A DNA stretch of 64,000 nucleotides from an uncultured Lachnospiraceae bacterium (lineage in GTDB: Bacteria > Bacillota > Clostridia > Lachnospirales > Lachnospiraceae). Of the stretch, positions 29,285-64,000 are shown one piece after another. Under the pieces are notes generated by a model. It worked only from the letters and a program-made list of their open reading frames with translations. It was not told where the DNA came from and made no database searches. Within the stretch, counting starts at the first letter, position 1. Each line of letters opens with the position of its first letter. Location of the stretch: NCBI GenBank assembly GCA_944381405.1, contig CALWLA010000007.1:8014-72013 (forward strand), in the 5' to 3' direction. A program made the translations under genes and the position numbers.

Positions 29285-29357
29285 GGGCGGGCCTCCCGCT
29301 CCTATAAACCGGTTGACAAATCCGGGAAACTTTTTATAATACAGTTGTAAATCAAAT

Positions 29358-43343: not shown

Positions 43344-43383
43344 GTATAAATACAATTTTTTGTCCCAAAATCAGAAAAACACC

Positions 43384-43412
43384 TTTACAAATTTATATTT
43401 ATACGCTATTAT
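43384..43412 (+). promoter_or_regulatory. candidate promoter of the amino-acid ABC operon
   Basis: TTTACA (43384-43389), 17 nt, TATTAT (43407-43412) in an AT-rich intergenic stretch. Confidence 0.4.
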
Positions 43413-43468
43413 GTATAATCATACAAAAGAAACGGATAAATATCAAAATTTGTTTGGAGGAAAAGGAT

Positions 43469-44401: not shown

Positions 44402-44462
44402 GCACCCGGACAGCAGCAGGATTTTGAAAAACAGACTTCATGATGGATAAAGGGTGAATGAC

Positions 44463-45146: not shown

Positions 45147-45194
45147 TGGGAGACGGCATCGGCCCGGGAACTGAGAAAATAAGGAAAGAAGACC

Positions 45195-45962
45195 ATGGAG
45201 ATAAAGACAAACAAGAAAACAGAAGCAGGAGAAGAGCTCATCCGGGTGGAGGGGCTCGAGAAAAAATTCGGCAGCCTTCAGGTGCTGAAGGGCATCGACC
45301 AGGTGATCCGCAAGGGAGAGGTAGTGTCCGTCATCGGCCCCTCCGGCGGCGGCAAATCCACCTTCCTGCGGTGCCTGAATCTGTTGGAGGTACCGGACGG
45401 GGGCAGCATCTTTTTTGAAGGGGTGGACATCACCCGAAAGGACGTGGACATCAACCTGCACCGGCAGAAGATGGGCATGGTGTTCCAGCATTTCAACGTT
45501 TTCCCCAACATGACCGTGGGGGAAAACGTCACCATGGCGCCGGTGCTCCTTGGGAAAAAGACCAAGGAGGAGGCCCGGGAAATGGCAAAGGAGCTCCTGA
45601 ACAGAGTCGGCCTTCTTGACAAGATCGACGCTTACCCCCAGAAGCTTTCCGGAGGACAGAAGCAGCGGCTTGCCATCGTGCGGGCCCTGGCCATGGAACC
45701 GGACGTGATGCTCTTCGACGAGCCCACCTCGGCCCTGGATCCTGAAATGGTAGGAGAGGTGCTGAACGTAATCAAGGAGCTGGTGAAGACCGGCATGACC
45801 ACGGTGATCGTGACCCATGAGATGGGATTTGCCAAGGAGGTTTCCGACCGGGTGCTGTTTATGGACGGCGGCGTCATCGCCGAGGAGGGCACTCCCGAGG
45901 AGCTTTTCGAGCATCCCAAGAGCGAACGTACCAAGGAATTTCTCGGAAAGGTGCTTTATTAA
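45195..45962 (+). CDS. amino acid ABC transporter ATP-binding protein
   Basis: Walker [10 protein letters not shown], signature LSGGQKQR, Walker [13 protein letters not shown]-loop VTHEMGFA. Confidence 0.93.
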
Positions 45963-46019
45963 AGCCCTGCCGGGGCAGCTGGCCTTCCGGCGGGAATCAG
46001 AAAACAAAGAGGCGGAAAC

Positions 46020-47477: not shown

Positions 47478-47566
47478 GGAGGCGGACCCGGGACGGCCCG
47501 CGATCAAAACCGGCGGGGCAGCACTCCTGGAGCCGGGAGATAGAAAGTTTAGAAAAATTTTAGCTT

Positions 47567-47596
47567 TATCAGCACTCTTGCAGCAAGAGTGCTATT
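47567..47596 (+). promoter_or_regulatory. CIRCE operator (HrcA binding site)
   Basis: TCAGCACTC-TTGCAGCAA-GAGTGCTAT versus consensus TTAGCACTC-N9-GAGTGCTAA (16/18 match, exact 9-nt spacer). Confidence 0.85.
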
Positions 47597-47622
47597 GACA
47601 AAAGCTTTCACTCAGGTATAAT
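47595..47622 (+). promoter_or_regulatory. sigma-A promoter of htpG
   Basis: Consensus TTGACA (47595-47600), 16-nt spacer, consensus TATAAT (47617-47622). The -35 overlaps the right end of CIRCE. Confidence 0.7.
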
Positions 47623-47727
47623 AAAACTAACGGCACAAGACGCGGGGCGCTTTGCTTCCGGGTCTTGTGTTTTGCAGAAAAATCCCTTTGGAGACAGGAA
47701 AAGGGAAGAAAAGAGGAGTGATAGGCA

Positions 47728-49869
47728 ATGTCAGAATTTCAGAACATGCAGGGAAGTCTCACTATCAACAGCGAGAACATTTTCCCCATTATCAAAAAAT
47801 GGCTTTATCAGGATCATGATATTTTCTACCGGGAGCTGATCTCTAACGGCTGCGACGCAGTGACCAAGCTGAAAAAGCTTGCTCTCATCGGAGAATACAC
47901 CGCACCGGCAGAGGAAACATACCGGATCGACGTGACGGTGGATCCGGAGAAAAAGACCATCGAGGTAAAGGATAACGGCCTGGGCATGACCGCCGAGGAG
48001 GTCAACAGCTATATCAACCAGGTGGCATTTTCCGGCGCGGCGGATTTCCTGCAGAAATATAAGGACAAGGCCAACGAGGATCAGATCATCGGTCATTTCG
48101 GACTGGGCTTTTATTCCGCCTTCATGGTGGCGGACCGGGTGACCATCGACACCCGTTCCTATAAGGCGGACGCGCTGCCGGTCCACTGGGAGTCTGACGG
48201 CGGCACGGAATACACCATGACGGAGGGCGACAGAGCAGAGCGGGGCACCACCATCACCCTGTACCTCAACGAGGACAGCCTGGAGTTCTGCAACGGCTAC
48301 AAGGCCAGAGAGGTGATCGAGAAATACTGCTCCTTCATGCCGGTGGAGATCTACCTTCACGACGTCAAGCGGGACGCAGAGGACGCAAAACGCCGGGAAG
48401 AGGATATCCAGAAAAAACGGGAAGAAGCGGAGCAGAAGGCCAGGGAGGCCGAGGCAAAACAGGCAGATGCATCTGCAAGCGCCGAGGATAAAGAAAAAGC
48501 GGAAAAGGAAGCGAAGGATGCCGCCGAGGCTCTTTCCGAGGCAGAAAGGATCCCGGAGGAAAAGCCTCTGAACGATACCAATCCCCTGTGGAACGAAAAT
48601 CCCTCTCAGGTAAAGGAGGAGCAGTACAAGGAATTCTATCGGAAAGTCTTTATGGACTTTAAGGAGCCCCTGTTCTGGATCCATCTGAACATGGACTATC
48701 CCTTCAACCTGAAGGGCATCCTGTATTTCCCCAAGGTGAACACCCAGTACGATAACCTAGAGGGCACCATCAAGCTGTACAACAACCAGGTATTCATCGC
48801 GGATAACATCAAGGAGGTCATTCCGGAGTATCTGATGCTGCTGAAGGGCGTCATCGACTGTCCGGATCTGCCCCTGAACGTCAGTCGGTCCGCTCTGCAG
48901 AACGACGGATTTGTCAAGAAGATCTCCGACTATATCACCAAGAAGGTGTCCGACAAGCTTTCCGGCATGTTCAAGACAGACCGGGAGAACTACGAAAAAT
49001 ACTGGGACGACATCAGCCCCTTTATCAAATACGGCTGCCTGAAGGACAGCAAGTTCGGCGACAAGATGAAGGACGCCATCCTCATGAAGGACCTGTCCGG
49101 CAAGTACCTGACGGCAGAGGAATACCTGAAGGGAGGTAAGGACGCAGAGGCAGGCGAAGCGCCGGAAGCCGGGGCAGAGGAAGCGGCAAAGGCCAAGACG
49201 GCTGAGACGGCAGAAAAACCTGCGGAGGAAAAAAACAGCGCAGAACCGGAGAAAAAGGAACCGGAGAAAAAGACCGTTTTCTATGTGACGGACGAGAAGG
49301 AGCAGGGCCAGTACATCCGCATGTTCAAGGACGCAGGCCTCAATGCGGTGATCCTGGATCAGGTCATTGACACCCCCTTCATCGGATTTATGGAGCAGAA
49401 GCATGAGGCGCTGAAGTTCACCCGCATCGATGCAGACCTGAGCGAGGCCTTCAAGGAGGAAAATGCAGAGGCAGCGGATCAGAAGCAGCAGGAGGCCCTG
49501 ATCGCCCTGTTCCGGAAGGCAGCAGGAAACGACCAGCTGGAGGTAAAGGTAGAAAACCTGAAGGACAGCACCGTGGCTTCCATGATGACCATGTCTGAGG
49601 AAGGCCGCCGGATGCAGGAAATGATGAAGATGTATGCGGCCTACGGCATGGATATGGGAGCTCTGGGAGAAAAGGACCAGACCCTGGTGCTGAACGCAGG
49701 AAACGATCTGGTAAAGCGGCTCCTGAAAGAGGATGGAGAGGAAGCCCTCCGGATGCAGATCGCGGAGCAGCTTTACGACATGGCCCTGCTTTCCAGAGGC
49801 GGCCTGAGCCAGGAACGGATGACCGCCTTTATCAGAAGAAGCCAGGAGCTGATGATGAAGCTTTCCTGA
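47728..49869 (+). CDS. htpG: molecular chaperone HtpG (Hsp90)
   Basis: GHKL ATPase motifs ELISNGCDA, DNGLGMT and GHFGLGFYS. 713 aa with two charged low-complexity insertions. Confidence 0.95.
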   Translation: MSEFQNMQGSLTINSENIFPIIKKWLYQDHDIFYRELISNGCDAVTKLKKLALIGEYTAPAEETYRIDVTVDPEKKTIEVKDNGLGMTAEEVNSYINQVAFSGAADFLQKYKDKANEDQIIGHFGLGFYSAFMVADRVTIDTRSYKADALPVHWESDGGTEYTMTEGDRAERGTTITLYLNEDSLEFCNGYKAREVIEKYCSFMPVEIYLHDVKRDAEDAKRREEDIQKKREEAEQKAREAEAKQADASASAEDKEKAEKEAKDAAEALSEAERIPEEKPLNDTNPLWNENPSQVKEEQYKEFYRKVFMDFKEPLFWIHLNMDYPFNLKGILYFPKVNTQYDNLEGTIKLYNNQVFIADNIKEVIPEYLMLLKGVIDCPDLPLNVSRSALQNDGFVKKISDYITKKVSDKLSGMFKTDRENYEKYWDDISPFIKYGCLKDSKFGDKMKDAILMKDLSGKYLTAEEYLKGGKDAEAGEAPEAGAEEAAKAKTAETAEKPAEEKNSAEPEKKEPEKKTVFYVTDEKEQGQYIRMFKDAGLNAVILDQVIDTPFIGFMEQKHEALKFTRIDADLSEAFKEENAEAADQKQQEALIALFRKAAGNDQLEVKVENLKDSTVASMMTMSEEGRRMQEMMKMYAAYGMDMGALGEKDQTLVLNAGNDLVKRLLKEDGEEALRMQIAEQLYDMALLSRGGLSQERMTAFIRRSQELMMKLS

Positions 49870-49922
49870 TACAGGCATAACACAAGAGACAAGCTTAAGG
49901 GACAGACATAACGGGCAAAAAC

Positions 49923-51275
49923 ATGAATCAGCAGTCATTGATCAGAGGGAACATCACAGGTTCCCTCCTGCTGTTTGCCCTGCCCATGATGGCGGGGAAT
50001 CTTCTGCAGCAGTTTTACAATATCACGGATACCTTTATCGTGGGCCGGTTCCTGGGGACAGAGGCGTTGGCGGCAGTGGGCTCAGCCTATACCCTGATGA
50101 CCTTTCTGACCTCCATCCTGATCGGCCTTTCCATGGGAAACGGGGTATTCGTATCCATCTGTTTCGGAAAAGAGGAGAGGAGAAGGCTTCGGACAGGCGT
50201 GTTCCTCTCCTTTCTTCTGATCTTCGGAATCACGGCGGTGATGAACATCGCCGTATTTCTGCTGCTGGAACCCATCCTTTTGTTCATGAACATCCCGGCG
50301 GAGGTGCAGCCTCTCATGCGGGAATATCTTGCAGTGATCTTTCTGGGGCTCTTCGGGGTATTCCTTTATAATTACTTTACCTGCCTGCTGCGGGCCATCG
50401 GCAATTCCGCGGTGCCCCTCTGGTTCCTGCTTCTGTCCACGGTGGTAAATATCCTACTGGATCTGGTGTTTGTGGTGCCCCTTCAGATGGGGGTGGCAGG
50501 CGCTGCCTGGGCCACCATCATCGCCCAGTATCTTTCCGGCCTAGGGGTCATGGCCTATACCCTGGTGAAATGCCCGGAATTCCGGGTGCAGCGCCGGGAA
50601 ATGCGCTGGGACCAGGGAATCCTTTCGGAGATCGCAGGCCTTTCCGTGCTGACCTGCCTGCAGCAGTCAGTGATGAACTTCGGCATCCTCATGGTGCAGG
50701 GACTGGTGAACAGCTTCGGCACCACCGTCATGGCGGCCTTTGCGGCAGCGGTGAAGATCGACTCCTTTGCCTACATGCCGGTGCAGGATTTCGGCAATGC
50801 CTTTTCTACCTTTGCGGCTCAGAACTTCGGCGCAGGGAAGCCGGAACGGATCAGGGAAGGGATCCGGAAGGCGCTTTTGTGCATTACGGTGTTCTGCCTG
50901 ACGGTCTCCGCCCTGGTGTTCCTGTTTGCAGGCCAGCTGATGCTGATCTTCGTTAAGCCGGAGGAAACGGCGGTGATCGCCGAAGGGGTCCGCTATCTGC
51001 GGGTGGAAGGCGCTTTCTATATCGGCATCGGGATCCTGTTTCTGCTTTACGGTTTTTACCGGGCGGTGAAAAAGCCGGGCATGTCTCTGGTGCTGACGGT
51101 GATCTCCCTGGGGACCCGGGTGCTGCTGGCCTATGCCACCGCAGGGGCTGTGGGCGTGACGGGGATCTGGGCGGCCATTCCCATCGGCTGGTTCCTGGCA
51201 GACCTGACAGGATATCTCTACTACCGCCGTCAAAAGAACTTGTTATTTTCAGGATCCTATGATAAAATTTCTTAG
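49923..51275 (+). CDS. MATE family efflux transporter
   Basis: 12-TM protein. N-terminus LLLFALPMMAGNLLQQFYNITDTFIVGRFLG is typical of MATE/NorM-like exporters. Confidence 0.9.
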   Translation: MNQQSLIRGNITGSLLLFALPMMAGNLLQQFYNITDTFIVGRFLGTEALAAVGSAYTLMTFLTSILIGLSMGNGVFVSICFGKEERRRLRTGVFLSFLLIFGITAVMNIAVFLLLEPILLFMNIPAEVQPLMREYLAVIFLGLFGVFLYNYFTCLLRAIGNSAVPLWFLLLSTVVNILLDLVFVVPLQMGVAGAAWATIIAQYLSGLGVMAYTLVKCPEFRVQRREMRWDQGILSEIAGLSVLTCLQQSVMNFGILMVQGLVNSFGTTVMAAFAAAVKIDSFAYMPVQDFGNAFSTFAAQNFGAGKPERIREGIRKALLCITVFCLTVSALVFLFAGQLMLIFVKPEETAVIAEGVRYLRVEGAFYIGIGILFLLYGFYRAVKKPGMSLVLTVISLGTRVLLAYATAGAVGVTGIWAAIPIGWFLADLTGYLYYRRQKNLLFSGSYDKIS

Positions 51276-51356
51276 ATCTGAAGGACGCTTCGGGCATGCC
51301 CGGAGGGATCAGGCAGGAGGCCTGTCTGAGGAACAGAAAGAGAAAGGTGAGATGGG

Positions 51357-52673
51357 ATGAACGTTCTTTTAAAAGGCGCTGAAGTTTATACCGAAGAAGG
51401 ACTGAAAAGATGCGATCTTTCCATTTGCAACGGACGCATTCAGTTCGATACGGCTCACAGAGCATTTGACAAGGTAGAGGATCTTAGCGGCCTTGTTTTA
51501 GTTCCCGGTTTCGTGGATGTACATGTGCATCTGCGGGAACCGGGCTTTTCTTATAAGGAGACCATAAAGACCGGAAGCCGGGCGGCGGCAAGAGGCGGAT
51601 TTACCGCAGTCTGCGCCATGCCGAATCTAAAGCCGGCCCCCTCCTCCATGGAGGCCCTGTCCCAGGAGCTGGAGCTGATCCACCGGGATGCAGCGGTGCA
51701 TGTGTATCCTTATGGAACCATCACAAAGGATCAGAGCGGCAGAGGAGCGCTTTCCGATATGGAGGAGCTTCGGGACTACGTGGTGGGCTTTTCCGACGAC
51801 GGAAAGGGCGTCCAGGAGGAGGAGACCATGCGCCAGGCCATGGAGCGGGCGGCGGCACTGGGGGTCCCTATCGTGGCGCACTGCGAGGACGAGAGGGAGC
51901 TCAAGCCCGGCGGCTGCATCCATGAAGGCGAATATGCCAGACTCCATAACCATGTGGGTATCAACTCCGCCAGCGAGTGGAAGCAGGTACAGCGGGACAT
52001 CGCCCTTTGCGAGGAAACCGGCTGTCAGTATCATATCTGCCATGTTTCCACCAAGGAAACGGTGGAGCTGGTGCGGCAGGCGAAAAAACGGGGCCTTCGG
52101 GTCACCTGTGAAACCGGTCCCCACTATCTGATCTATACGGACATGGATCTTCAGGAAAGCGGCGCCTGGAAGATGAATCCGCCGATTCGCAGCGCAGAAG
52201 ACCGGGAGGCTCTGCTGGAGGGCATCAATGACGGTACCATCGACTGCATCATCACGGATCATGCGCCCCACAGCCAGGAGGAAAAGTCCAGAGGGCTGGA
52301 TGGCTCTGCCTTTGGCATCACAGGGCTGGAAACGGTGCTCCAGGCAGTCTATTCCATGCTGGTAAAGACCGGAAAGATGAGCTTTGACCGCATGATCGCT
52401 TGCATGTGCATAAATCCCAGGAAGATCTTCGGGATTCCTGGGGCCGTTACCAGGGCGGAGCATCTTCGGGAAAAGCATGCGGAATATTACGGCGGAATCA
52501 CCGAGGGAGCTCTTGCGGACCTTACAGCTCTGGACCTGCACAAGGAGTGCATCATCGACAGCAGCAGCTTTTATTCCATGGGAAAAAGCACGCTGTTCGA
52601 CGGCGCAAGGGTGCAGGGAGAGGTGCGGGGCACCTGGATCGCTGGGAAAAAGGTCTATCCCTTTGAAGCATAA
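51357..52673 (+). CDS. pyrC: dihydroorotase
   Basis: DVHVHLREPG metal motif, CAMPN and ITDHAPH. Confidence 0.92.
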   Translation: MNVLLKGAEVYTEEGLKRCDLSICNGRIQFDTAHRAFDKVEDLSGLVLVPGFVDVHVHLREPGFSYKETIKTGSRAAARGGFTAVCAMPNLKPAPSSMEALSQELELIHRDAAVHVYPYGTITKDQSGRGALSDMEELRDYVVGFSDDGKGVQEEETMRQAMERAAALGVPIVAHCEDERELKPGGCIHEGEYARLHNHVGINSASEWKQVQRDIALCEETGCQYHICHVSTKETVELVRQAKKRGLRVTCETGPHYLIYTDMDLQESGAWKMNPPIRSAEDREALLEGINDGTIDCIITDHAPHSQEEKSRGLDGSAFGITGLETVLQAVYSMLVKTGKMSFDRMIACMCINPRKIFGIPGAVTRAEHLREKHAEYYGGITEGALADLTALDLHKECIIDSSSFYSMGKSTLFDGARVQGEVRGTWIAGKKVYPFEA

Positions 52674-52740
52674 AAGGCTTTCAGAGCCAGGGCCATTCAT
52701 CTGTGAAACGAAGTCAATTTATATAAAGGAGAAAAGGAAT

Positions 52741-53406
52741 ATGAAGGAAGATATCGCAAAAGGCTTGTTATCCATCAAGGCTGTATTTCTGAGACCGGAG
52801 GAGCCCTTTACCTGGGCCAGCGGAATCAAGAGCCCCATCTACTGCGACAACCGCCTGGTATTGACCGCACCGGAGGTGCGCACCATGGTGGAGACCCAGA
52901 TCGCGGAAACCATAAAGAAATATTATCCCGGCTGTGAGGTGCTGATGGGTACCTCCACCGCAGGAATCGCCCACGCAGCCATTGCAGCCCACATGATGGG
53001 ACTGCCCATGGGCTATGTGAGAGGCTCTGCAAAGGATCACGGCAGGACCAACCAGATCGAAGGAAGGCTGGAAAAGGGACAGAAGGTCGTAGTGGTGGAG
53101 GATCTGATCTCCACCGGCGGCTCCGTCATCGAGGTGGTGAACGTGCTGCGGGAGGCAGGCGCAGAGGTGCTGGGCATCGTCAGCATCTTCACCTATGGCA
53201 TGGCAAAGGGCCTGAACCGGCTGCGGGAGGCGCAGGTCAACAACATCAGCCTCTGCGATCTGGACACCCTGGTGGAGGTAGCCGTGGAAGAAGGTTATAT
53301 CAAGAAGGAAGACCGGATCAAGCTGCTACAGTTCAGGGACAACCCGTCAGATGAATCTTGGATGAAGGGGGAAGTGAAATGCAAAGAGATCAGATCAGGA
53401 ATCTGA
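52741..53406 (+). CDS. pyrE: orotate phosphoribosyltransferase
   Basis: ATG 52741 after [28 protein letters not shown] and PRPP loop [13 protein letters not shown]. The longer listed ORF (52477) overlaps pyrC. Confidence 0.92.
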
Positions 53407-54320
53407 TAAGCATTCTGGACTTATCAGTTGATGAGATCAACGGACTGATCGATGTGGCAAACGACATCGACCAGCATCCGGAGAGATACCAGGAGGCCTG
53501 CCGCCATAAGCAGCTGGCAACCCTGTTTTTTGAGCCCTCCACCAGGACCCGATTGAGCTTTGAATCCGCCATGCTGAGCCTGGGAGGCTCTGTGCTGGGC
53601 TTTTCCTCGGCTAATTCCAGCTCTGCGGCGAAAGGAGAGAGCGTTTCCGATACGGTGCGGACCGTGGGTAACTATGCGGACATCATCGCCATGCGCCACC
53701 CCAAAGAGGGAGCGCCCATGATCGCTTCCCAGCATACGGTGGTACCCATCATCAATGCGGGAGACGGCGGACATTTCCATCCCACCCAGACCCTTACGGA
53801 TCTTCTGACCATCAGCCGGAAAAAGGGCCGTCTGTCGGATATGACCATCGGCCTTTGCGGAGACCTGAAGTTCGGCCGCACGGTACACAGCCTCATCGAG
53901 GCGACCCTGCGGTATCCCAATATCCGCTATATTCTTATCAGCCCCGAGGAGCTTCGCGTTCCGGAATACATGATCGACGAGCTGAAGGAAGCGGGAGCTG
54001 ATTTTGAAGAGGTGACAGATCTGGAGGCGGCAATGCCGCAGCTGGATATTCTTTATATGACCCGTATCCAGAAGGAGCGTTTCTTTAACGAAGAGGACTA
54101 TCTCAGACTGAAGGACACCTACATCCTGACGCCGGACAAGCTGAAAAATGCCAAGAGCGACCTGAGCATCCTGCACCCCCTGCCGAGAGTCAACGAGATC
54201 TCCGTAAAAGTGGACGAGGATCCCAGGGCCTGCTATTTCTACCAGACCCTTTGCGGAAAGCAGATCCGCATGGCGCTGATCCTATTCCTTCTGGGCATTC
54301 ACCCGGAAGAACAGGCGTAA
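53379..54320 (+). CDS. pyrB: aspartate carbamoyltransferase catalytic subunit
   Basis: [13 protein letters not shown] and HPLPR motifs. ATG 53379 after GGGGGA (alternative ATG 53358). Overlaps the pyrE 3' end. Confidence 0.93.
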
Positions 54321-54365
54321 GCCTTTTGGACAAACCGGACAGTCAGAAATTTGGAGGAAAAAGCG

Positions 54366-54785
54366 ATGAATATAGACGGCGTAACCACGGGAATCGTGCT
54401 GGATCATATACAGGCCGGAAAATCCATGGAGATCTATGAATACCTGGGGCTCGACAAGCTCCAGAGCTGCGTGGCAGTCATCCAGAACGTGCGCAGCGCG
54501 AAGTATGGGAAGAAGGATATCATCAAGATCGACGAGCTCATCGATCTGAATCTGGATGTGCTGGGGTATTTCGATCCCAACATCACGGTGAATTATATCA
54601 AGGACGGAAAGCTTCTGGAAAAGAAGCATCTGGCTCTGCCGGATCGCCTGACGGATGTGCTGCACTGCAAAAACCCGCGGTGTATCACCAGCTGCGAGCA
54701 GGAGATCCCTCATGTATTTGAACTGGTGGATCGGGAGAAGAAGATCTACCGGTGCATCTACTGCGATACCCAGGTGCGGGTATGA
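54366..54785 (+). CDS. pyrI: aspartate carbamoyltransferase regulatory subunit
   Basis: ATG 54366 after GGAGG. GIVLDHI allosteric domain and zinc domain CKNPRCIT...CIYCD. Confidence 0.9.
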   Translation: MNIDGVTTGIVLDHIQAGKSMEIYEYLGLDKLQSCVAVIQNVRSAKYGKKDIIKIDELIDLNLDVLGYFDPNITVNYIKDGKLLEKKHLALPDRLTDVLHCKNPRCITSCEQEIPHVFELVDREKKIYRCIYCDTQVRV

Positions 54786-54858
54786 TCTGCAAAAGGCGAT
54801 TCGCAGCATAGAAAAAACAGCAGCAACTATATGGTATTACAGAATTGAAAATCGCGAA

Positions 54859-54890
54859 GGAGCATGGCCGAGGGGCTGTGCTCTTTTTTT
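54859..54890 (+). terminator. rho-independent terminator after pyrI
   Basis: GGAGCATGGCC-GAGG-GGCTGTGCTC stem (two G-U pairs) followed by TTTTTTT. Marks the GC-rich/AT-rich boundary. Confidence 0.75.
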
Positions 54891-55129
54891 GCGGCGATTT
54901 TGAAATTGAATGTCATTCCAAAAAGTTCCTGATTTTCGAAAGTTTTTGGATCACATTCCCAAAAGTGTTGAAAAAACGGGCGTTTTTGGATTCGGATTGT
55001 CCCATGCTTTTTATTTGTATGCCCGTGATATAGACGCAGGATGGCGGAAATGCGGGATGAAAGACAAGGGAGAGAGCATCTCCCTTTTTTTATTGCAAAA
55101 AATAGGAGCAGGGTGGGTGAAAACTAGCG

Positions 55130-55160
55130 AACTCCAAATAATGAACAATTATTTGGAGTT
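55130..55160. repeat. perfect 13-bp inverted repeat (hairpin or operator)
   Basis: AACTCCAAATAAT-GAACA-ATTATTTGGAGTT. The arms are exact reverse complements. Confidence 0.9.
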
Positions 55161-55499
55161 GGGGAGTGGGCTGACGGCAAAGGAAAAGGCGAGGCGTAAG
55201 GGTATGTATATGTACAGGGGGGGGATGGATATGCGGATGCAGGTGAGGAAGCGGATATGGGTGATTGAAGGGCGAGACTGTGGGAGATAAGTGAAAATGG
55301 ACATTCCAGAAGCTGCGAGGACAGTGATGGGATGTTTATTTTTAGATTGAAGGAAATGCAAAAAACGAAATGATTCTGTAAGACAATGGCTAGCCTGAAT
55401 TTTTAGTGGCATGAGAATGGGCTATGATGGCAGTTTTCTACATCAAAATTAGCTGAAAAAGGTGTTTTTGCGTAAAAGCGTTTGCATAGTGATTTCTTC

Positions 55500-55646
55500 A
55501 TTATAAAGCGAAAGTCGGAGTGATCAGGCGGTGGGGCTATCTATTATAAAGCGAAAGTGGGGAGTCTGGTCGGGCTTGAGAAACATGAAATTTTTCATTT
55601 TGGATAGATGGACGCAAACAGTGATGAGGTCATTATAAAGCGAAGG
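55500..55646 (+). repeat. three direct copies of ATTATAAAGCGAA(A/G)G
   Basis: Copies at 55500-55515, 55543-55558 and 55632-55646 (third has one mismatch). Each is followed within ~30 nt by a GGCGGT/GGTCGG element. Confidence 0.85.
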
Positions 55647-55803
55647 ATACGATACGTTGCTGGCGGTTTGGATTATGTCCACACCGCTGAAAGGCTGATA
55701 AATCAAGGACTTTTAAGAAATGTTCAGTACATATCGACAGGGCTGTCCAAATGATTTTAGTTGCTAGAGAAATGATATTTACCGATTGCTATGCGGAAAC
55801 CAT

Positions 55804-55894
55804 GTCTACCCAAATGGAATTATTGAAGGAAATAGAGGGCAATAAAGTATTCAACATTTGAGGTGTCTGCCCTAAATGGAATAGTTGATGAAAA
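55804..55894 (+). repeat. two ~29-nt imperfect direct repeats
   Basis: GTCTACCC-AAATGGAATTATTGAAGGAAA (55804-55832) and GTCTGCCCTAAATGGAATAGTTGATGAAAA (55865-55894), period 61 nt. Confidence 0.8.
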
Positions 55895-56020
55895 CAGACT
55901 ATGAAAGACTAGAAATGAACATTTCTGGTATTAATTTTATAAAATTTGGAAACTGGATTTAAGGGTACAGATGTACAGAGATTTGTTTGTTTCATTATAT
56001 AAATTGACTGAAAGAAAGGC

Positions 56021-56069
56021 TACTGTGGAAATCATGAAGAGGGGAATAAAGAAATGATTATCCACAGTA
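56021..56069. repeat. 15/16-nt inverted repeat just upstream of ugd
   Basis: TACTGTGGAAATCAT (56021-56035) and ATGATTATCCACAGTA (56054-56069). One-nt bulge, 18-nt loop, ends 55 nt before ATG 56125. Confidence 0.85.
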
Positions 56070-56124
56070 ATTTCGATCATAGAAAATATTCCGGATTTGC
56101 CGGATAGAAAGAGGAAAGGTTGTT

Positions 56125-57375
56125 ATGGATAAAAAGTATACGATTACTGTAGCTGGAACCGGATATGTGGGATTGTCGATTGCCACACTGCTGTCTCAGC
56201 ATCATAAGGTTTATGCTGTAGATATCGTTCCGGCAAAGGTTGATATGGTGAACCAGCGTAAATCACCGATTCAGGATGAATATATCGAAAAATATCTGGC
56301 AGAGAAGGACTTGGATTTGACCGCAACGCTTGACGCAGAGATGGCGTATAGAGCTGCGGATTTTGTTGTAATCGCGGCGCCTACAAACTACGACTCAAGT
56401 ACACAGCACTTTGACACGAGTGCAGTTGAAAACGTGATTGAACTGGTTATGAAATATAACCCGGAAGCAATCATGGTCATCAAATCGACCATTCCGGTTG
56501 GATATACGAAAAGTATCCGGGAGAAAACCGGAAGCAAGAATATCCTATTTAGCCCTGAGTTTTTAAGAGAGTCAAAAGCATTATATGACAATTTATATCC
56601 GTCAAGGATCATCGTGGGCACTGATATGGAGGACGAACGACTGGTCAATGCTGCACATACATTCGCTGAACTCTTGCAGGAGGGTGCTATTAAGGAGAAT
56701 ATCGACACGCTGTTTATGGGTTTCACCGAGGCTGAGGCTGTGAAACTGTTTGCTAATACCTATCTGGCACTTCGCGTGGCTTATTTCAACGAGCTTGATA
56801 CTTATGCGGAAATGAAGGGGCTTAATACCCAGCAGATCATTAAAGGTGTCTGCCTGGATCCGCGTATCGGAGATTTCTACAACAATCCGAGCTTTGGCTA
56901 TGGTGGATATTGTCTGCCAAAGGATACTAAACAGTTGCTGGCAAACTATCAGGATGTTCCAGAGAACTTGATTGAAGCAATCGTAGAGAGCAATAGGACG
57001 AGGAAGGATTTTATAGCAGATCGTGTACTGAAACTGGCCGGATATTATGACTATTACAATCGTGGCGACTATAGTGCTGACGAGGAAAAGAAATGCGTCA
57101 TTGGCGTTTATCGGCTGACCATGAAGAGCAATTCTGATAACTTCCGTCAGAGCAGTATCCAGGGTGTTATGAAGAGAATCAAGGCAAAGGGAGCTACAGT
57201 AATTATTTACGAACCAACTCTGGAAGATGGAAGTACTTTCTTCGGATCTGTAGTTGTAAATGATTTGGAAAAGTTCAAGGAGATGTCACAGGCCATTATC
57301 GCTAATCGGTATGACAAGTGCCTGAATGATGTGAAAGAGAAAGTTTATACAAGGGATATTTTCCAGAGGGATTGA
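56125..57375 (+). CDS. ugd: UDP-glucose 6-dehydrogenase
   Basis: Rossmann [10 protein letters not shown] and catalytic Cys motif [12 protein letters not shown]-rich codon usage. GAGGAAAGG RBS. Confidence 0.92.
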
Positions 57376-57385
57376 GGAGATAGCA

Positions 57386-59086
57386 ATGAATTACAAAGAT
57401 AGATATGAACAATGGCTAAATGATGATTTTTTTGATGAGACGACTCGAAAAGAGTTAGCCGCCTTAACAGACGATAAAGAGATTGAGGATTGTTTTTATC
57501 GCGATCTTGAGTTTGGTACAGGTGGTTTACGTGGCATCATGGGAGCCGGTACCAATCGAATGAATCAATACACAGTCGGGAAAGCAACGGCTGGACTTGG
57601 AAAGTATCTGCTTGATACTTATGGAGCAGAAGCCTGCAGAACTCGAGGCGTAGTTATTAGTTATGATACCCGGAATAACAGTAAATATTTTTCACAGACG
57701 ACAGCTAATATATTGAGTGGTATGGGAATCCGTGTTTATCTTCATTCCAACGCAAGACCAACACCACAGCTATCTTTTTCTGTGAAGTTCTTCCATGCAC
57801 TTGCCGGCGTAGTCATTACTGCCAGCCATAATCCAAAGAAATATAACGGTTACAAAGTATATGACGAATTTGGCTGCCAGCTTGTCCCCTGGCAGGCAAA
57901 GCAAGTGATCAGTTATGTGGATGCGATTACAGATTACCACAGCATTAACTATACAGGGAATGACAGCCTTATTTCTATGGTTGATGTGACGGATAACTTT
58001 GTCATGGCTGTCATGAAACAAAGTCGATATGAAGATCAACAGGCAAAGGAGGATTTAAAAGTTATATATACCCCATTACACGGGACAGGAAATATCCCTG
58101 TTCAGAAAGCGCTTCATTTAGGTGGTTTTACTCAAATTGAGCCAGTGGTAGAGCAAGTTGTCCCTGACGGGAACTTCCCCACTGTGGTCTCTCCTAACCC
58201 TGAAGACAAGAGAGCTTTGGAATTGGGAATTGTACAGGCAAAACGTATTGATGCGGACATCGTGTTGGGGACAGACCCGGATTGCGACCGTGTAGGAATT
58301 GCAGTTAGAAACTCAACTGGTGATTATCAATTAATGACCGGCAATCAGGTCGGCGCTTTGTTGATGAGATTCATCTTGACCCATACAGATTTGACTCAAT
58401 ATTCTCGTCCGGCAGTTGTGAAAACAGTCGTTACTTCAGAGCTTGGAGCGGATATTGCCAGAAAACATGGTATTACTGTGTTCTCCACTTTGACTGGTTT
58501 TAAATTCATCGGGGAAAAGATCACGCAGTTTGAGCGGGATAAAGCGGAAGGCAGTGCTGACCGGAATTTTGATTTCCTGTTCGGCTATGAAGAATCTTAT
58601 GGGTATTTAGCTGGAACACATGCCCGTGATAAAGATGCGGTTGTCAGCTCCCTGTTGATCTGTGAGATGGCTGCCGAAGCAAAGGCAAATGGAAAGACTC
58701 TTCTTGATGAAATGGATGAGATCTATGCGGAGTATGGTTACTACCGCGATGCTCTGGATAGTTTCACATTGAAGGGAAAGGACGGATTAGAAAAGATAAC
58801 GGCTATGATGACTGAATTACGTTCCTCTGATTCTCCATTTGAGGATACAGCTTCCGTTATTGATTACAGCAAACCAGTGGATGCAGAACCTGGATTCGGG
58901 AAACTACCTACGTCCAACGTTTTGAAATATATCTTGGAAGATGGCTCATGGATTGCTGTACGCCCGTCCGGCACGGAGCCCAAAATAAAAATTTATTACA
59001 GCATAAAGGCTGTTGATAAGGAAACTGCAGAGAAGAAATTAATAGATATACAAAATGTGATCCAGAGTAAGCTGGAACTTAACTAA
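57386..59086 (+). CDS. phosphoglucomutase/phosphomannomutase family phospho-sugar mutase
   Basis: Phosphoserine loop [15 protein letters not shown], metal loop GTDPDCDR and sugar loop GYEESYGY. 566 aa, PgcA-like size. Confidence 0.9.
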
Positions 59087-59100
59087 GGGGGCAAGGCGTT

Positions 59101-60420
59101 ATGAATATTATTTTACTTTCCGGGGGAAGCGGCAAGCGTCTGTGGCCTCTTTCCAATGAAGTAAGAAGCAAACAGTTTATCAAGTTGTTTAAAAATGAGA
59201 ATGGCGAATATGAATCCATGGTCCAGAGGGTGTACCGTCAGATCCATGCGGTAGATGATGCTGCCAATATTACGATTGCGACCAGTAAATCCCAAGCAAG
59301 TGCCATTAAAAATCAGTTGGGTGAGAAAGTATCGATCTGTGTGGAACCTTGCAGGCGGGATACATTTCCGGCGATTGTACTTGCTGTTTCTTATCTTCAT
59401 GATGAATTGGGAGTGTCTGAGGATGAGGCGGTAGTTGTCTGCCCGGTAGACCCTTATGTTGATCATACATACTACGAAGCAGTGGAAAAATTACAGGAGT
59501 TAGCAAAAGAAGAAAACGCTAACCTTACACTGATGGGAATTGAACCAACCTATCCTTCTGAGAAGTATGGCTATATCATTCCTGAGTCTGGCGATTCTGT
59601 GAGCAAAGTTAAGGAATTTAAAGAAAAACCAGATCAGGAGACAGCAAAGAAATATCTTACACAGAATGCCCTTTGGAATGCAGGTATTTTCGCATTTAAG
59701 ATCGGTTATTTGCTCAATAAAGCACATAGCATGATCGATTTTGAAGATTACCGTGAGTTATTTAATAAGTATGACACATTGGCTAAGATCAGCTTCGATT
59801 ACGCTGTCGTAGAAAAAGAGCCATCCATCCAGGTATTGCGTTACAAAGGAGACTGGAAAGATGTGGGGACCTGGAATATGATGGCCGAGGTCATGGCAGA
59901 TACAACAAAAGGAAAGGTGATCCTGGATGATGCCTGCGAGAATACCAATGTGGTAAATGAGCTCAATATTCCGATTCTCTGTATGGGATGCAAAGACCTG
60001 ATCGTTGCGGTCAGTGGTGACGGGATCCTGGTTTCTGATAAGGAACGCAGCGGCTATATGAAGCCTTATGTGGAAAAAATCGAAACAGAGGCCATGTATG
60101 CAGAAAAATCCTGGGGAACCTACACTGTTATTGATGTGCAGGTTGGTTCCATGACTGTAAAACTGTCTATGAAACCAGGCGAACATATGAGTTATCACAT
60201 GCACAATTACCGGGAGGAAGTATGGACGGTGGTATCCGGCAAAGGAAAAGCTATTGTTGATGGAATGGAACAGATTCTACGGACTGGCGATGTCATCACG
60301 ATTGCGGCAGGCTGCAAGCATACGGTAGAGGCAATCACCGGGTTGGACATGATTGAAGTTCAAATTGGTGAGGAAATTAGTGTTAGTGATAAAGTGAAGT
60401 TTTCGCTGGGCGAAAGATAG
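59101..60420 (+). CDS. manC: mannose-1-phosphate guanylyltransferase with C-terminal cupin
   Basis: LLSGGSGKRLWPLSNEVRSKQF nucleotidyltransferase motif. C-terminal cupin (GEHMSYHMHNYREEVWTVVSGKG). Confidence 0.88.
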   Translation: MNIILLSGGSGKRLWPLSNEVRSKQFIKLFKNENGEYESMVQRVYRQIHAVDDAANITIATSKSQASAIKNQLGEKVSICVEPCRRDTFPAIVLAVSYLHDELGVSEDEAVVVCPVDPYVDHTYYEAVEKLQELAKEENANLTLMGIEPTYPSEKYGYIIPESGDSVSKVKEFKEKPDQETAKKYLTQNALWNAGIFAFKIGYLLNKAHSMIDFEDYRELFNKYDTLAKISFDYAVVEKEPSIQVLRYKGDWKDVGTWNMMAEVMADTTKGKVILDDACENTNVVNELNIPILCMGCKDLIVAVSGDGILVSDKERSGYMKPYVEKIETEAMYAEKSWGTYTVIDVQVGSMTVKLSMKPGEHMSYHMHNYREEVWTVVSGKGKAIVDGMEQILRTGDVITIAAGCKHTVEAITGLDMIEVQIGEEISVSDKVKFSLGER

Positions 60421-60434
60421 TGGGTGCGGTAGAA

Positions 60435-61400
60435 ATGGAAATATTGAAACTGAAGCCTGCGGGAAAGGATTATCTCTGGGGTGGTACAAGACTCCGTGAT
60501 GAATATGGGAAGAAAATTGATCTGACCCCTTTAGCGGAAACATGGGAGTGTTCTGTTCATCCGGATGGTCCCAGTATTGTAACGAATGGAGAATTTAAAG
60601 GCTGGAAGTTAACAGATGTCTTAAAGCAGCATCCGGAATTTCTTGGCTTAAAGGTCAAAAATGGTGAATTACCTATCTTAGTGAAATTTATAGATGCGAA
60701 ACAGGATCTGTCTGTGCAGGTACATCCGGATGATGAGTATGCCAGAAAGAATGAACATCAAAATGGAAAAACCGAAATGTGGTATGTCATTGATGCCGAT
60801 GAAGGGGCAAATCTGATCTATGGCTTTCAGCACAAAGTTACAGACGATATTTTAAGAAACGCTGTCGAGACAGGAACCCTTGATAAACATCTGCAAAAAG
60901 TGTCTGTCCATAAGGGTGATATCTTCTATGTTCCAGCAGGGACAGTTCATGGTATAGGAGCTGGTATTCTGCTTGCGGAGATTCAGGAAAGCTCCAATGT
61001 AACATACCGTGTCTATGATTATGACAGGGTTGATAAAAATGGAAAAAAACGGGAACTTCATTTTGATAAGGCCGTTCATGTTATGAACATGGATATGGCT
61101 CCAGATGTAAAGCAGATGCCGAGGATAATAAAACATTATCCGGGATGTTCACGAGAACTGCTGTGTCGCTGCAAATACTTTGAAGTTGAAAGAATTCAAG
61201 TCACCAAAGCATTTTCATTTTCTGTTCTTGAAGAATCGTTCCAAGTCATTATGTGCCTGGAAGGAGAGGGACAGATAGAGACAATGGATGAGAACCTAAA
61301 ACCAGTCAGGTTTGTGAAGGGAAGGACATTGCTTCTTCCAGCTGGACTTGGAAGGTGTCTGGTTGTTGGGGATGCTACGATATTGAAGATAAGGTGTTAA
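60435..61400 (+). CDS. manA: mannose-6-phosphate isomerase, class I
   Basis: [46 protein letters not shown] 60420 is an alternative start overlapping the manC stop. Confidence 0.88.
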
Positions 61401-61426
61401 TTAAAATTTTAGGAGGATTAACGATT

Positions 61427-62458
61427 ATGAAAAAGGCATTAATTACTGGAATTACTGGTCAGGATGGTTCCTACTTGGCGGAATTTCTTCTCGAGAAGGG
61501 CTATGAGGTACATGGAATCATACGTCGTGCATCTGTTTCTACAACCGCACGTATAGACCACATTCTAGACAAATTAAATATCCATGAAGGAGACCTGTCA
61601 GATTCTTCCAGCATCATACGCATTGTTCTTCAGGTTAAGCCAGATGAAATTTATAATCTTGCAGCTCAGTCTCATGTACAGGTGTCCTTTGATGCAGCTG
61701 AGTATACAGGAGATGTAGATGCTCTTGGTGTACTTCGAATCCTTGAGGCTGTGCATACCGCTGGCTTGGATAAAACCTGCCGCGTATATCAGGCATCTAC
61801 TTCTGAACTGTACGGAAAGGTTGAGGAAGTTCCGCAGAACGAGAATACACCGTTCCATCCATATTCACCTTACGCAGTAGCAAAGCAGTATGGTTATTGG
61901 ATGATTAAAGAATATAGAGAAGCATATGGCATTTTCGCATGCAACGGTATCCTTTTTAATCATGAATCAGAACGTCGTGGCGAGAATTTTGTAACGCGTA
62001 AGATTACTTTGGCAGCCGGACGTATCGCTTGTGGTCTTCAGGATCATCTTGAGCTTGGTAATCTGGATTCTCTGCGTGACTGGGGATACGCCAAGGATTA
62101 TGTGGAGTGTATGTGGCTGATCTTACAGCAGGATGAGCCAGATGATTATGTAATTGCTACTGGTGTACAGCACACGGTTCGGGAGTTTACAACGCTTGCT
62201 TTTGCTAATAATGGTATCGAGCTCGAGTGGAGAGGTGAAGGTATGGATGAAAAGGGATATGACAAACAGACTGGCAAGATGCTGGTTTGTGTAAATCCCA
62301 AGTGGTATCGTCCCACGGATGTTGTAAATCTTTGGGGAGATCCAACTAAGGCAAGAACTAAGTTGGGCTGGAATCCTCAGAAAACAAGTTATGAGGAGCT
62401 TTGCAGAATCATGGCAGAGCATGACTTACAATTAGCTAAAAAGGAAGCAGGTGTGTAA
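61427..62458 (+). CDS. gmd: GDP-mannose 4,6-dehydratase
   Basis: ATG 61427 after [49 protein letters not shown] and [10 protein letters not shown]. Confidence 0.95.
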
Positions 62459-63373
62459 ATGAAGGCTTTAATCACTGGAAGCAATGGCTTTATTGGCTCA
62501 CATCTTAGTACAGAGTTTGAGAAAAATGGATATGAAGTTATTAAGAGTGATCTTACTGAAGGTGGCGGAAATATTGCCATGGATATAATGAATCCAGCGG
62601 TGATTCAAAGTGTTCTTGAGAAATATAAACCAGATGTTATCATCAACATGGCCGGGCAGGCAAATGTAGGACTCTCGTGGAAGAAGCCACAGCTTACTGT
62701 TCAGCTTAACACGGTTGGATTGATTAATATCTTGGAATCTGTAAAAGCGGTCAACTCTGAGATACGTGTTATTGCTATTGGTTCTTCTGACGAATATGGG
62801 AGTTTAAAAGAAAGCGGTTCCAATGTTACTGAAGATATTCCTGTGAAACCGGTCACACCTTATGCTATTTCTAAACAGGCACAGGAGTTGTTTGCACAGC
62901 TGTACGTCCAATCGTATGGCATGGATATCTGCATGATTCGGCTATTCAATCTTGGTGGGGCAGGTCAATCAAAAGGATATATGATTTCTGATTTTTCTTC
63001 CGGTATTGCTGAAGTTGAGCTTGGAAAAAAAGATGTGATGTCTGTCGGCAACCTTGAGAGTGCCAGAGACTATACACATGTGAAGGATGCCTGTAGAGCT
63101 GTACGGCTTATTGTGGAAAAAGGACATGTTGGAGAGGTATACAATATCTGTTCTGGCACAACTCACACTGTACAGGAAGTCTTAGATAAGTTGATTGCAA
63201 TGGCAAAGACAGAGATTAAGGTTGTACAGGATCCAGCGAGGATGCGCCCGAGTGACACTCCGGTCGTTTGCGGTAATCATGATAAGCTGACTGCACATAC
63301 AGGATGGCAACCGAAATATGGTATTGATGAGATATTGAAAGATGCCCTCACTTATTGGAGAGAGCAGAATTGA
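62459..63373 (+). CDS. rmd: GDP-4-dehydro-6-deoxy-D-mannose reductase-like SDR (Rmd-like)
   Basis: Starts 1 nt after the gmd stop. ALITGSNGFIGSHL, YAISK, VYNICSG and VQDPARMRPSD resemble recalled Rmd sequences rather than Fcl. Exact product (D-rhamnose vs 6-deoxy-D-talose) cannot be decided by eye. Confidence 0.7.
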   Translation: MKALITGSNGFIGSHLSTEFEKNGYEVIKSDLTEGGGNIAMDIMNPAVIQSVLEKYKPDVIINMAGQANVGLSWKKPQLTVQLNTVGLINILESVKAVNSEIRVIAIGSSDEYGSLKESGSNVTEDIPVKPVTPYAISKQAQELFAQLYVQSYGMDICMIRLFNLGGAGQSKGYMISDFSSGIAEVELGKKDVMSVGNLESARDYTHVKDACRAVRLIVEKGHVGEVYNICSGTTHTVQEVLDKLIAMAKTEIKVVQDPARMRPSDTPVVCGNHDKLTAHTGWQPKYGIDEILKDALTYWREQN

Positions 63374-63390
63374 TTTATTAGGAGTGACTA

Positions 63391-64000
63391 TATGAGAATG
63401 AAATTCCTTAATACCCACATTGATAATCTTACAATGAGTGAAGCAATTCAAGAAATAGATAAATTAATCCAAGATGGAAAGCATTCGTATGTAGTTACTC
63501 CTAATCTGGATCATATTGTACTTATAGAAAATGATGAGTTATTTAAAGAAATTTATGACAATGCGGATTTGGTTTTAGCTGATGGGAAACCGTTGTTGTG
63601 GATTGCGAAAAGGCAAGGAACTCCAATTAAAGAAAAAGTATCTGGTTCGGATCTTTTCCCGGAGATGTGTAAGTTGGCAGCAAAGAACGGGTACAAGATT
63701 TATATCCTTGGAGCAGCTGAGGGAGTAGCAGATAAGGCTGCAGAGAACCTTATAGTAAAGTTTAATGGACTTAAAATTGTAGGTACATATTCGCCACCTA
63801 TAGGATTTGAAACGGACAAAACTGAGGTTCAAAAAATTGTTAATAAGATTAACGAATCCAAAGCTGATATTTTGGCCGTTGCATTAGGCTCACCGAAGGG
63901 CGAAAAGTTCATATATAGGATTAGAGAGAAGATATGTGTGGTTTTGTCAATTTCAATCGGGGCCACGATAGATTTTGAGGCAGGGAATTTGAAGCGTGCT
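63391..64000 (+). CDS. WecG/TagA/CpsF family glycosyltransferase (3' end outside the window)
   Basis: Not in the ORF track because no stop lies within the window. My translation from ATG 63391 (after AGGAG) gives MRMKFLNTHIDNLTMSEA...VVTPNLDHIV...ADLVLADGKPLLW...VSGSDLF...YILGAAEG...ILAVALGSPKGEKF, the WecG/TagA pattern. Confidence 0.85.

Follow-up and report, generated by a model that had tools for sequence, protein, structure and literature searches.

Gene content and base composition downstream of pyrBI

The subject of this study is a surface-polysaccharide locus at the right-hand end of a 64,000-nt stretch of DNA (the window; contig CALWLA010000007.1) from an uncultured Lachnospiraceae bacterium, whose nearest named relative, Candidatus Avilachnospira (Eubacteriales), shows 85% PyrB identity. 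Its conserved, GC-rich left flank consists of pyrB (53379–54320; G+C content at third codon positions (GC3) of about 0.70) and pyrI (54366–54785), for which Pfam OTCace and PyrI were matched on identical contigs. On the same forward strand follow an AT-rich intergenic spacer (54786–55165) that is the same across strains carrying different cassettes, a strain-variable purine-rich tract (55166–55384; G 37%, C 9.6%) and a conserved, C-poor leader of about 740 nt (55385–56124) that forms the left end of the exchanged unit. The first gene, ugd, starts only at 56125, leaving 1.34 kb (54786–56124) without a family-supported open reading frame (ORF). A first-pass annotation, made from the letters of this stretch, had counted seven coding sequences in the locus; the count was right, and the 1.34-kb non-coding stretch ahead of ugd has to be added to its layout.

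All seven genes lie on the forward strand, co-directional and closely spaced. The first, ugd (56125–57375), encodes a UDP-glucose 6-dehydrogenase of 416 aa (NCBIfam TIGR03026, 306 bits at a cut-off of 190). It is followed by genes for a phosphoglucomutase/phosphomannomutase-family protein of 566 aa (57386–59086; Pfam PGM_PMM_I–IV, with all NCBIfam matches below equivalog cut-offs), a ManC-like mannose-1-phosphate guanylyltransferase of 439 aa (59101–60420; Pfam NTP_transferase and MannoseP_isomer, with TIGR01479 at 212 bits, below cut-off), the class I mannose-6-phosphate isomerase ManA (60435–61400; TIGR00218, 164 bits, cut-off 116) and the GDP-mannose 4,6-dehydratase Gmd (61427–62458; TIGR01472, 513 bits, cut-off 415). 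Next comes an Rmd/GTS-like short-chain dehydrogenase/reductase (SDR), a reductase/epimerase (62459–63373) that matches Pfam Epimerase and GDP_Man_Dehyd and reaches no NCBIfam family at cut-off; from its position after gmd it probably makes GDP-6-deoxy-D-hexose, and an assignment as Fcl was rejected at only 48 of 500 bits. The last gene, for a glycosyltransferase of the WecG/TagA/CpsF family, begins at 63392 and runs off the window end at 64000; the full gene encodes 248 aa, and its identical full-length copy in a comparison locus, L001, scores 143 bits with TIGR00696 (cut-off 69).

Contigs that are 99.8–100% identical to the window extend the operon to a total of about 21.8 kb, from 55385 to about 77140 in window-equivalent coordinates. 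The further genes encode three GT4 enzymes, a Wzy_C polymerase, GT2-like and GT1 enzymes, a 51-aa NTP-transferase remnant, an NDP-hexose 2,3-dehydratase, a GFO/Idh/MocA oxidoreductase, an FdtA remnant with an SDR, and a Wzx-type flippase of 510 aa; glycosyltransferases number seven, the WecG/TagA enzyme in the window and six beyond it. The polymerase (423 aa, with multiple transmembrane segments, PF04932 Wzy_C) lies at about 67.6–68.9 kb, window-equivalent, on identical contigs. The flippase gives a weak NCBIfam WZX_like match (E = 1.8e-8, below cut-off), and its homologues at 50–63% identity carry PF01943 and are annotated as sugar translocase or O-antigen export protein. The unit is an operon-like, Wzx/Wzy-dependent heteropolysaccharide cassette of about 22 kb. 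Its enzymes would supply UDP-glucuronate (Ugd) and would run the GDP-mannose route (ManA, phosphomannomutase, ManC) and then that to GDP-6-deoxyhexose (Gmd and the Rmd-like reductase); an NDP-hexose 2,3-dehydratase/ketoreductase branch, the seven glycosyltransferases, the Wzy polymerase and the Wzx flippase would complete the predicted set, and the polymer would be a surface capsule, exopolysaccharide (EPS) or wall glycan.

Base composition changes sharply at the end of pyrI. Computed per segment, G+C content is 0.571 over 1–54785, 0.400 over the intergenic region 54786–56124 and 0.423 over 56125–64000, a drop from 57.1% to 42.0% across the step. The 1-kb intervals upstream of the step average 0.572 (standard deviation 0.023, minimum 0.516), and the nine from 55001 onwards average 0.420, with a maximum of 0.444. 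The maximum-likelihood single change point falls after base 54780 (2-lnL support interval 54699–54827; log-likelihood ratio 363), coinciding with the pyrI stop codon (54785). GC3 is 0.726 ± 0.039 in 41 upstream genes (minimum 0.647), against 0.37–0.47 in the six complete genes of the locus and 0.33 in the partial seventh (Mann–Whitney p = 9e-8), and the correlation of tetranucleotide usage is 0.945 among 9-kb host chunks versus 0.724 between host and locus. Over the whole cassette, rebuilt from identical contigs, G+C is 38.5%, and 35.5% in the glycosyltransferase/wzy core, along a gradient from 41–44% in the sugar-nucleotide genes to 31–36% in the glycosyltransferase, wzy and wzx genes, compared with 57% in the host.

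The first-pass annotation had reported, by eye, a sharp G+C and GC3 break after pyrI and a preference for A/T-ending codons in all seven coding sequences. Both stand: the sliding G+C, GC3 and tetranucleotide profiles that it had proposed as a check make the step highly significant. Its estimate of 60% versus 40% becomes 57% versus 42%, and its position for the break, 54891, lies about 100 nt beyond the best computed point, an immaterial difference. As the start of the locus, the same position marks the step but not the junction, as the exchanged unit begins at about 55385.

Exchange of the cassette between strains and contexts

Alignment downstream of pyrI across relatives, which had also been proposed, shows a locus that is variable and not conserved. 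In the closest sister species (92% and 89% PyrB identity; 80% and 75% nucleotide identity in the pyr region), pyrI is followed directly by DUF4317 (L104) or by cmk-ispH-rpsA-CYTH-tig-clpP-clpX (L102/L103); the DNA after pyrI has 50–60% G+C throughout, and similarity to the window goes no further than the pyrI stop. The block is likewise missing after pyrI in all of 80 more distant GTDB Clostridia, the best of which, at 66–76% PyrB identity, are too distant to inform.

Strains of the same species, members of one 90% PyrB cluster, differ in what follows the flank. Their contigs match the window at 98.0–98.9% identity along as much as 12 kb of flank and then turn to other glycan genes. Beyond the conserved flank, which ends between 55160 and 55356, there are four different continuations and at least three other glycan gene sets. 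L151, 98.0% identical over 43379–55356, carries Alg14/Alg13-like genes, a pyruvyl transferase, a thiamine pyrophosphate (TPP) enzyme, an SDR, a GT4, a DUF1919 protein, a hexapeptide acetyltransferase, a GT2 and Wzy; the cassette of L157 has a dNK/thymidylate-kinase-like gene and FdtA, and that of L152 differs again. Homology of L152, L153, L154 and L157 to the window ends at 55160–55170, and five independent contigs stop at 55133–55183 because the strains diverge at 55161–55170.

The spacer is shared by these strains: over 380 nt (54786–55165), the window and L151, with its other cassette, differ by one mismatch and one 1-nt indel. The compositional step (~54780) and the cassette junction are different positions, and the AT-rich spacer belongs to the conserved backbone. 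The purine-rich tract beyond it is about 75% identical to L151 up to about 55356, with a 37-nt deletion, and holds relics of a ugd 5′ fragment, GGAAGCGGATATGGGTGATTG at 55247–55267 and ...ATTCTGTAAGAC at 55373–55384, the latter resembling ...ALYD. No homology to 54786–55384 was found in any other locus compared. Purine tracts that are alike in composition (G 37%, C ~10%, G runs) and cannot be aligned precede the leader in the window (55166–55384), in L001 (2690–2940) and in L114 (400–726).

The spacer has further features of its own. The imperfect hairpin at 54859–54890, described earlier as the pyrI terminator, is visible with its run of seven T, but a terminator scan did not flag it and flags 55066–55096 instead. 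Two adjoining copies of TCC(A/C)AAAA-N18-TTTTTGGA at 54917–54990 have an operator-like appearance. A perfect palindrome with a 13-bp stem, AACTCCAAATAAT-GAACA-ATTATTTGGAGTT, occupies 55130–55160 and ends exactly where conspecific strains diverge; it may be a terminator, a recombination site or a product of chance. A 126-aa ORF (54910–55290) and small leader ORFs of 36 and 48 aa match no family and were treated as non-coding. An invertible promoter, suggested by a 15-nt inverted repeat (54831–54845 and 55373–55387), was rejected because such a repeat is expected by chance in 1.5 kb (hand estimate); the repeat is absent from other contexts.

The same cassette also stands elsewhere. In L001 and L096 it lies behind an EPS polyprenyl glycosylphosphotransferase gene, in DNA of 51–55% G+C that is absent from the window. 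Between L001 and the window, identity is 66–86% in the leader and a mosaic 81–97% in ugd, which acts as a recombination anchor, and reaches 99.5–100% over 57374–64000, with the phosphoglucomutase/phosphomannomutase gene at 99–100%; the two lineages remain 99.8–99.9% identical for about 13 kb past the window end. The jump in identity at 57374 therefore dates the exchange as very recent and puts the recombination breakpoint at the 3′ end of ugd.

On the evidence of the sister species, the conspecific strains and L001, both halves of the first-pass description, a horizontally acquired or hypervariable surface-polysaccharide locus, hold. We conclude with high confidence that the composition break forms the left-hand border of a surface-glycan site, downstream of pyrBI in an uncultured gut species of Clostridia (Eubacteriales), that varies between strains and is exchanged horizontally. 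The AT-richness of the cassette is not due to anything in the host chromosome; its cause is that the cassette belongs to a pool of genes passed among genomes that differ in base composition.

At the far end, insertion sequence (IS) elements follow wzx. In the window lineage an IS21-like end (TG... terminus, TTCCGG/GGAAAT repeats, an IstA-like N-terminus) lies 63 nt after the wzx stop and carries, inserted in it, an rve_3 (IS3-type) element (L161 5143–5810, ~77.1 kb window-equivalent). In a second lineage the insertion is a different one and lies 181 nt past the wzx stop, and in L096 wzx is followed by an acyltransferase fragment, a ugd 3′ fragment (15989–16456) and the contig end. Extension was attempted via the Rmd-like protein, the 2,3-dehydratase homologues and the Wzx homologues, and all contigs end at IS elements or forks; every public assembly of the window lineage stops after wzx because of the nested IS elements there. 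Of what the first-pass annotation had expected from an extended contig, polymerase and flippase were found; the initiating transferase is absent from the locus and the far boundary was not reached.

Several points weigh against this conclusion. L001 and L096 may represent another species or another strain with a second site, and only in the former case would this cassette have passed between species. Public contigs all stop 0.3–1.9 kb after wzx, and it is on the left flank alone that the site is shown to be fixed. From pyrI to the IS that follows wzx, the window lineage contains no initiating phosphoglycosyl transferase and no chain-length regulator or kinase; the former would be encoded elsewhere in this genome, in which expression and function of the cassette are thus putative. 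Other contexts do carry such genes upstream of the leader, namely a Bac_transf gene in L001 (TIGR03025, 338 bits, cut-off 296), L128, L131 and L145, and ORFs in L121 and L129 that resemble CpsC/CpsD by eye only. Finally, every functional assignment of cassette genes is a prediction from homology.

How the cassette moved can be read in part from its junctions. The first-pass annotation had called the acquisition route not evident; we read it as recombination via the shared leader and ugd together with IS elements outside the window. The head region (leader and ugd) is a recombination hot spot, marked by recurrent junctions: in L113, L116, L128 and L145, ugd codons 1–163 stand directly ahead of the leader and in frame, with the stop codon TAG at leader nt 7–9, and a second recurrent break falls inside ugd, at codons ~88–94, in seven loci. 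Fragments of ugd, NTP-transferase, FdtA and acyltransferase genes remain as recombination scars, ugd is split by an rve_3 IS in L114, and L112 and L115 contain a DDE_Tnp_1 IS. Homologous or illegitimate recombination would use the conserved head modules (leader, ugd) as one anchor, and IS elements would contribute to rearrangement, with no integrase or att site involved. The cassette appears to have been dropped into an older ugd, with a 5′ fragment before the leader and, in L096, a 3′ fragment after wzx.

A classical genomic island, integrative and conjugative element, prophage remnant or composite transposon, inserted after pyrI by a site-specific recombinase or transposase, would account for the razor-sharp left end at 55385 common to copies in at least five contexts, for the palindrome placed exactly at the point of strain divergence, and for the IS21-like, IS3-like and DDE_Tnp_1 elements that flank copies. 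It is nevertheless very unlikely. The window holds no tRNA (ARAGORN, 64 kb), and no mobile-element gene or recombinase was found in 30 upstream ORFs (Pfam, 1–37.1 kb), in the called genes at 43.5–54.8 kb or in the cassette, the ORFs at ~37.2–43.2 kb being unscanned; the earlier statement that no integrase, transposase, tRNA or flanking repeat is visible on this side is thereby upheld for the scanned ORFs. The upstream genes are housekeeping genes, among them those for FolD, Hsp33, HisS, AspS, RuvA, NusB, Dxs and HtpG and the pyr genes. Transposon-like ends were also rejected, with no direct or inverted repeats between the left end (55385) and the post-wzx tails, and the leader had no matches in collections of viral and phage contigs or plasmids. 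Moreover, strains differ in their glycan cassette rather than showing occupied and empty sites, and the breakpoint with L001 falls within ugd or at its end, where homologous exchange would put it.

An ancient resident locus, low in G+C through a local bias in mutation or selection (as for membrane proteins or weakly expressed genes), is less probable still, and already contradicted. AT-rich wzx, wzy and glycosyltransferase genes are widespread in bacteria, for reasons that are debated (PMC3715488), and the non-coding spacer 54786–55165 is itself AT-rich although part of the conserved backbone; but the block is absent at this site in the sister species and replaced in conspecific strains, a 99.5–100% identical copy lies behind different upstream genes, and soluble enzymes (Gmd, ManA and the phosphoglucomutase-family protein) also have a GC3 of 0.37–0.45 versus 0.73 in the host. 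We give hardly any credence to an assembly or binning chimera joining GC-rich chromosome to a lower-GC contig: many metagenome contigs do break at 55133–55257 and inside ugd at ~56297, as in an ambiguous assembly graph, but real strain divergence from 55166 explains the breaks, coverage in sample BRZ_KN is similar on both sides (4.4 for the pyr contig, 4.75 for a mid-cassette contig and 6.1 for the wzx contig), and at least two other samples, ERZ28613950 and ERZ24773413 (L009/L105 and L106/L108; L009 99.98% identical), yielded the pyrI–spacer–leader–ugd join in independent assemblies.

The leader at the head of the cassette

The leader (C 12% and G 25% on the coding strand) contains three CATTATAAAGCGAAAG boxes, at 55497–55515, 55543–55558 and 55631–55646, each made up of a −10-like TATAAA followed by a GCGAAAG core. 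Further downstream are three CC(C/T)AAATG repeats (55748, 55809 and 55871) and a hairpin, ACTGTGGA...TCCACAGT at 56022–56068, whose 8+3 pairs are kept in 18 of 18 homologues, with one compensatory change in each of two pairs. A small hairpin, TCCGG-ATTTG-CCGGA (56090–56104), abuts the ugd ribosome-binding site (RBS).

Exact look-up of the 36-aa leader ORF product, used as a device for finding DNA copies and with no claim of gene status, returned nine contigs whose identity to the window, 98–99.6%, begins in every case exactly at 55385 (AATGGCTAGCCTGAATTTTTAGTGG...). The upstream contexts of these near-identical copies, at least five in number, are mutually unrelated: PFK; an S8 peptidase/xanthine permease set; a DDE_Tnp_1 IS; a truncated ugd fused in frame, ending ...KALYD at the junction; and a 114-aa gene with a purine-rich tract. 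A scan of metagenomes for the three-box pattern added 24 more diverged members (L116–L150), bringing the family to more than 30 metagenomic loci. Box invariance among these matches is partly imposed by the search pattern; the leader of L001 (2941–3666) and the blocks flanking the boxes were selected independently of it and are conserved as well, and in L001 the 36-aa frame is kept, with many replacements. In the metagenome loci the leader sits between a front end, comprising ORFs that resemble CpsC/CpsD-type regulators by eye, a 114-aa protein and an initiating transferase, and the variable genes, the first of which is ugd or, in four loci, an SDR epimerase.

The same scan brought up 11 unrelated tandem arrays of a 27-nt unit, CATTATAAAGCGCCAAGTGTCAATTAA, that share a TATAAAGCG core with the leader boxes (L119, L122, L124, L126, L133, L138, L141, L142, L144 and L146, from Ga0123353 and related metagenomes). 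Five loci (L118 909–1370, L131, L139, L148 with two tandem copies, and L150) have a 1.3-kb insertion exactly where the leader begins on its left, a module that codes for a 153-aa XRE/HTH_3 protein.

The leader could be a new class of cis-acting element for glycan operons of Clostridia, a reading that we favour but consider less likely than not, which would combine control of elongation or antitermination through ops-like boxes with a role as a portable recombination head. The leader would be transcribed, its depletion in C may serve to avoid Rho, and at the boxes, with GCGAAAG as a mini-hairpin, RNA polymerase would pause and a factor for elongation or antitermination would be recruited, permitting transcription through an AT-rich operon of more than 20 kb. 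The sharp left end of the leader, together with the adjoining ugd, would offer the homology for swapping whole glycan cassettes between loci or genomes. Alternatively, the boxes may be operator sites for the XRE protein; this protein is a possible box regulator, or its module a small mobile element. No gene for a NusG paralogue was seen beside the ~30 loci examined, and none was evident, with only some ORFs scanned, in the window or among ORFs within 3–5 kb on the upstream side of 12 loci that have the leader.

Equally doubtful is the opposite account, in which the leader is a non-functional recombination scar of decayed gene fragments, kept similar by frequent exchange. Its first ~55 nt do resemble ugd codons 166–185, intact ugd 5′ fragments precede it in several loci, and the box invariance is in part a product of the search. 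The consensus RNA structure is weak as well: for an alignment of 23 sequences and 392 columns, RNAalifold predicts −16.5 kcal/mol, covariation in 3 of 44 pairs and, segment by segment, energies close to zero. However, the remainder of the leader has no similarity to ugd at the protein or profile level; near-invariance extends to blocks that the search pattern did not cover, with free variation in the segments that separate them; the leader is retained ahead of different first genes (ugd or an SDR epimerase); the conserved hairpin and the RBS-proximal hairpin are present; and the strong excess of G over C on the coding strand is maintained.

Two more specific ideas were rejected. One took the leader as a decayed 3′ part of ugd (740 versus 753 nt), but tblastn with Ugd residues 150–416 and an nhmmer profile found nothing beyond the first ~13 residues or ~55 nt. 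The other took it as a strongly structured RNA: only the 3′ hairpin at 56022–56068 is consistently kept, and because the global consensus structure is weak the leader is not a riboswitch-like folded RNA. A brute-force covariation screen of the leader was too noisy for use. Against Rfam, the best E-value over 54700–56250 was 0.39, and all matches were far below gathering scores.

The sole gathering-level Rfam match in the window is a TPP riboswitch at 29354–29457 (62.7 bits), ahead of a ThiT/YuaJ-type thiamine transporter gene (29528–30190). At 3335–6626, a GC-rich pair of genes for a GtrA-like flippase and a YfhO glycosyltransferase forms a resident glycan-modification module of host-like composition, a useful internal contrast to the AT-rich cassette. 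A 973-aa open frame on the reverse strand (44115–47036) was rejected as a gene; it is a shadow ORF (GC1, the first-position equivalent of GC3, 0.74; GC3 0.55) opposite genes for a substrate-binding protein, a permease, an ABC protein and an M20 protein.

Significance and comparison with known surface-glycan loci

Encounters of gut commensals with phages and with the immune system are governed by surface glycans, and to our knowledge almost nothing is known about how surface-glycan diversity arises in uncultured Clostridia. The finding is ordinary in kind, a familiar type of locus in a poorly known lineage, and extends the logic of O-antigen and cps loci (a fixed site, swappable low-GC cassettes and breakpoints in shared genes) to uncultured gut Eubacteriales. 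Two aspects go beyond the routine. One is the near-identical cassette of about 20 kb, directly shown to be common to two genomic contexts at 99.5–100% identity. The other is the conserved leader that matches no Rfam family, a concrete candidate for a new elongation-control element, whose three CATTATAAAGCG boxes offer a simple sequence handle for locating the starts of glycan cassettes in metagenome-assembled genomes. Repeated heads and IS caps are also where metagenome assemblies break, and composition-based binning is expected to fail there.

The cassette qualifies as a Wzx/Wzy surface-polysaccharide cluster at a variable chromosomal site: nucleotide-sugar genes and several glycosyltransferase genes are co-directional, Wzy and Wzx are present, G+C is atypically low, and the left flank is shared. 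The locus is not an integrase-type island. Its closest models are the enterobacterial O-antigen clusters between galF and gnd and the pneumococcal cps locus.

Like the O-antigen clusters, the cassette is a variable Wzx/Wzy cluster at a fixed chromosomal site beside housekeeping genes (PMC3715488). In Salmonella, man genes have 36–41% G+C and glycosyltransferase, wzx and wzy genes 28–37%, in genomes of 51–52% (PMC3715488); in both systems G+C lies far below that of the genome, with the man or sugar-nucleotide genes intermediate and the glycosyltransferase, wzx and wzy genes lowest (PMC3715488). In both, one form gives way to another through lateral transfer and recombination within the flanking DNA, and both have a conserved non-coding leader at the head. 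In contrast to the O-antigen clusters, the host here is a Gram-positive-type member of the Clostridia, the left flank is pyrBI, and the leader has about 740 nt and three boxes where JUMPStart has 39 bp and one ops. No RfaH-like gene was identified for the cassette, in a genome known only in part.

The Streptococcus pneumoniae cps locus, between dexB and aliA, is likewise a Wzx/Wzy locus of the Firmicutes that is swapped as a cassette with a serotype-specific centre (PMC5850285), and it has in common with the present locus a conserved 5′ region, borders that hold IS elements and gene fragments, and breakpoints that leave shared genes mosaic (PMC5850285). The conserved 5′ part of the pneumococcal locus is cpsA-D (regulators and initiating transferase), which does not adjoin the cassette in the window genome; genes of this type, recognised by eye in L121 and L129, precede the leader only where the context is another one (L001, L121, L128, L129 and L131).

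For the leader, the nearest parallels are UpxY/opsX, RfaH/ops and LoaP (Firmicutes), with which it would share its placing, as a long leader that separates the first gene of an extended glycan operon from the promoter region, and its logic, control of elongation over more than 20 kb. In the capsular polysaccharide operons of Bacteroides, the NusG paralogue UpxY is recruited at opsX pause sites in the leader (PMC11685472). The GCGAAAG core of the leader boxes resembles 5′-YGCGNAGCR and GCGGTAGC in the pattern GCG-N-AG(C/T), a likeness by inspection only (PMC11685472) that may serve as a lead. Unlike opsX, the leader described here, known from sequence, has three boxes, each preceded by a −10-like TATAAA.

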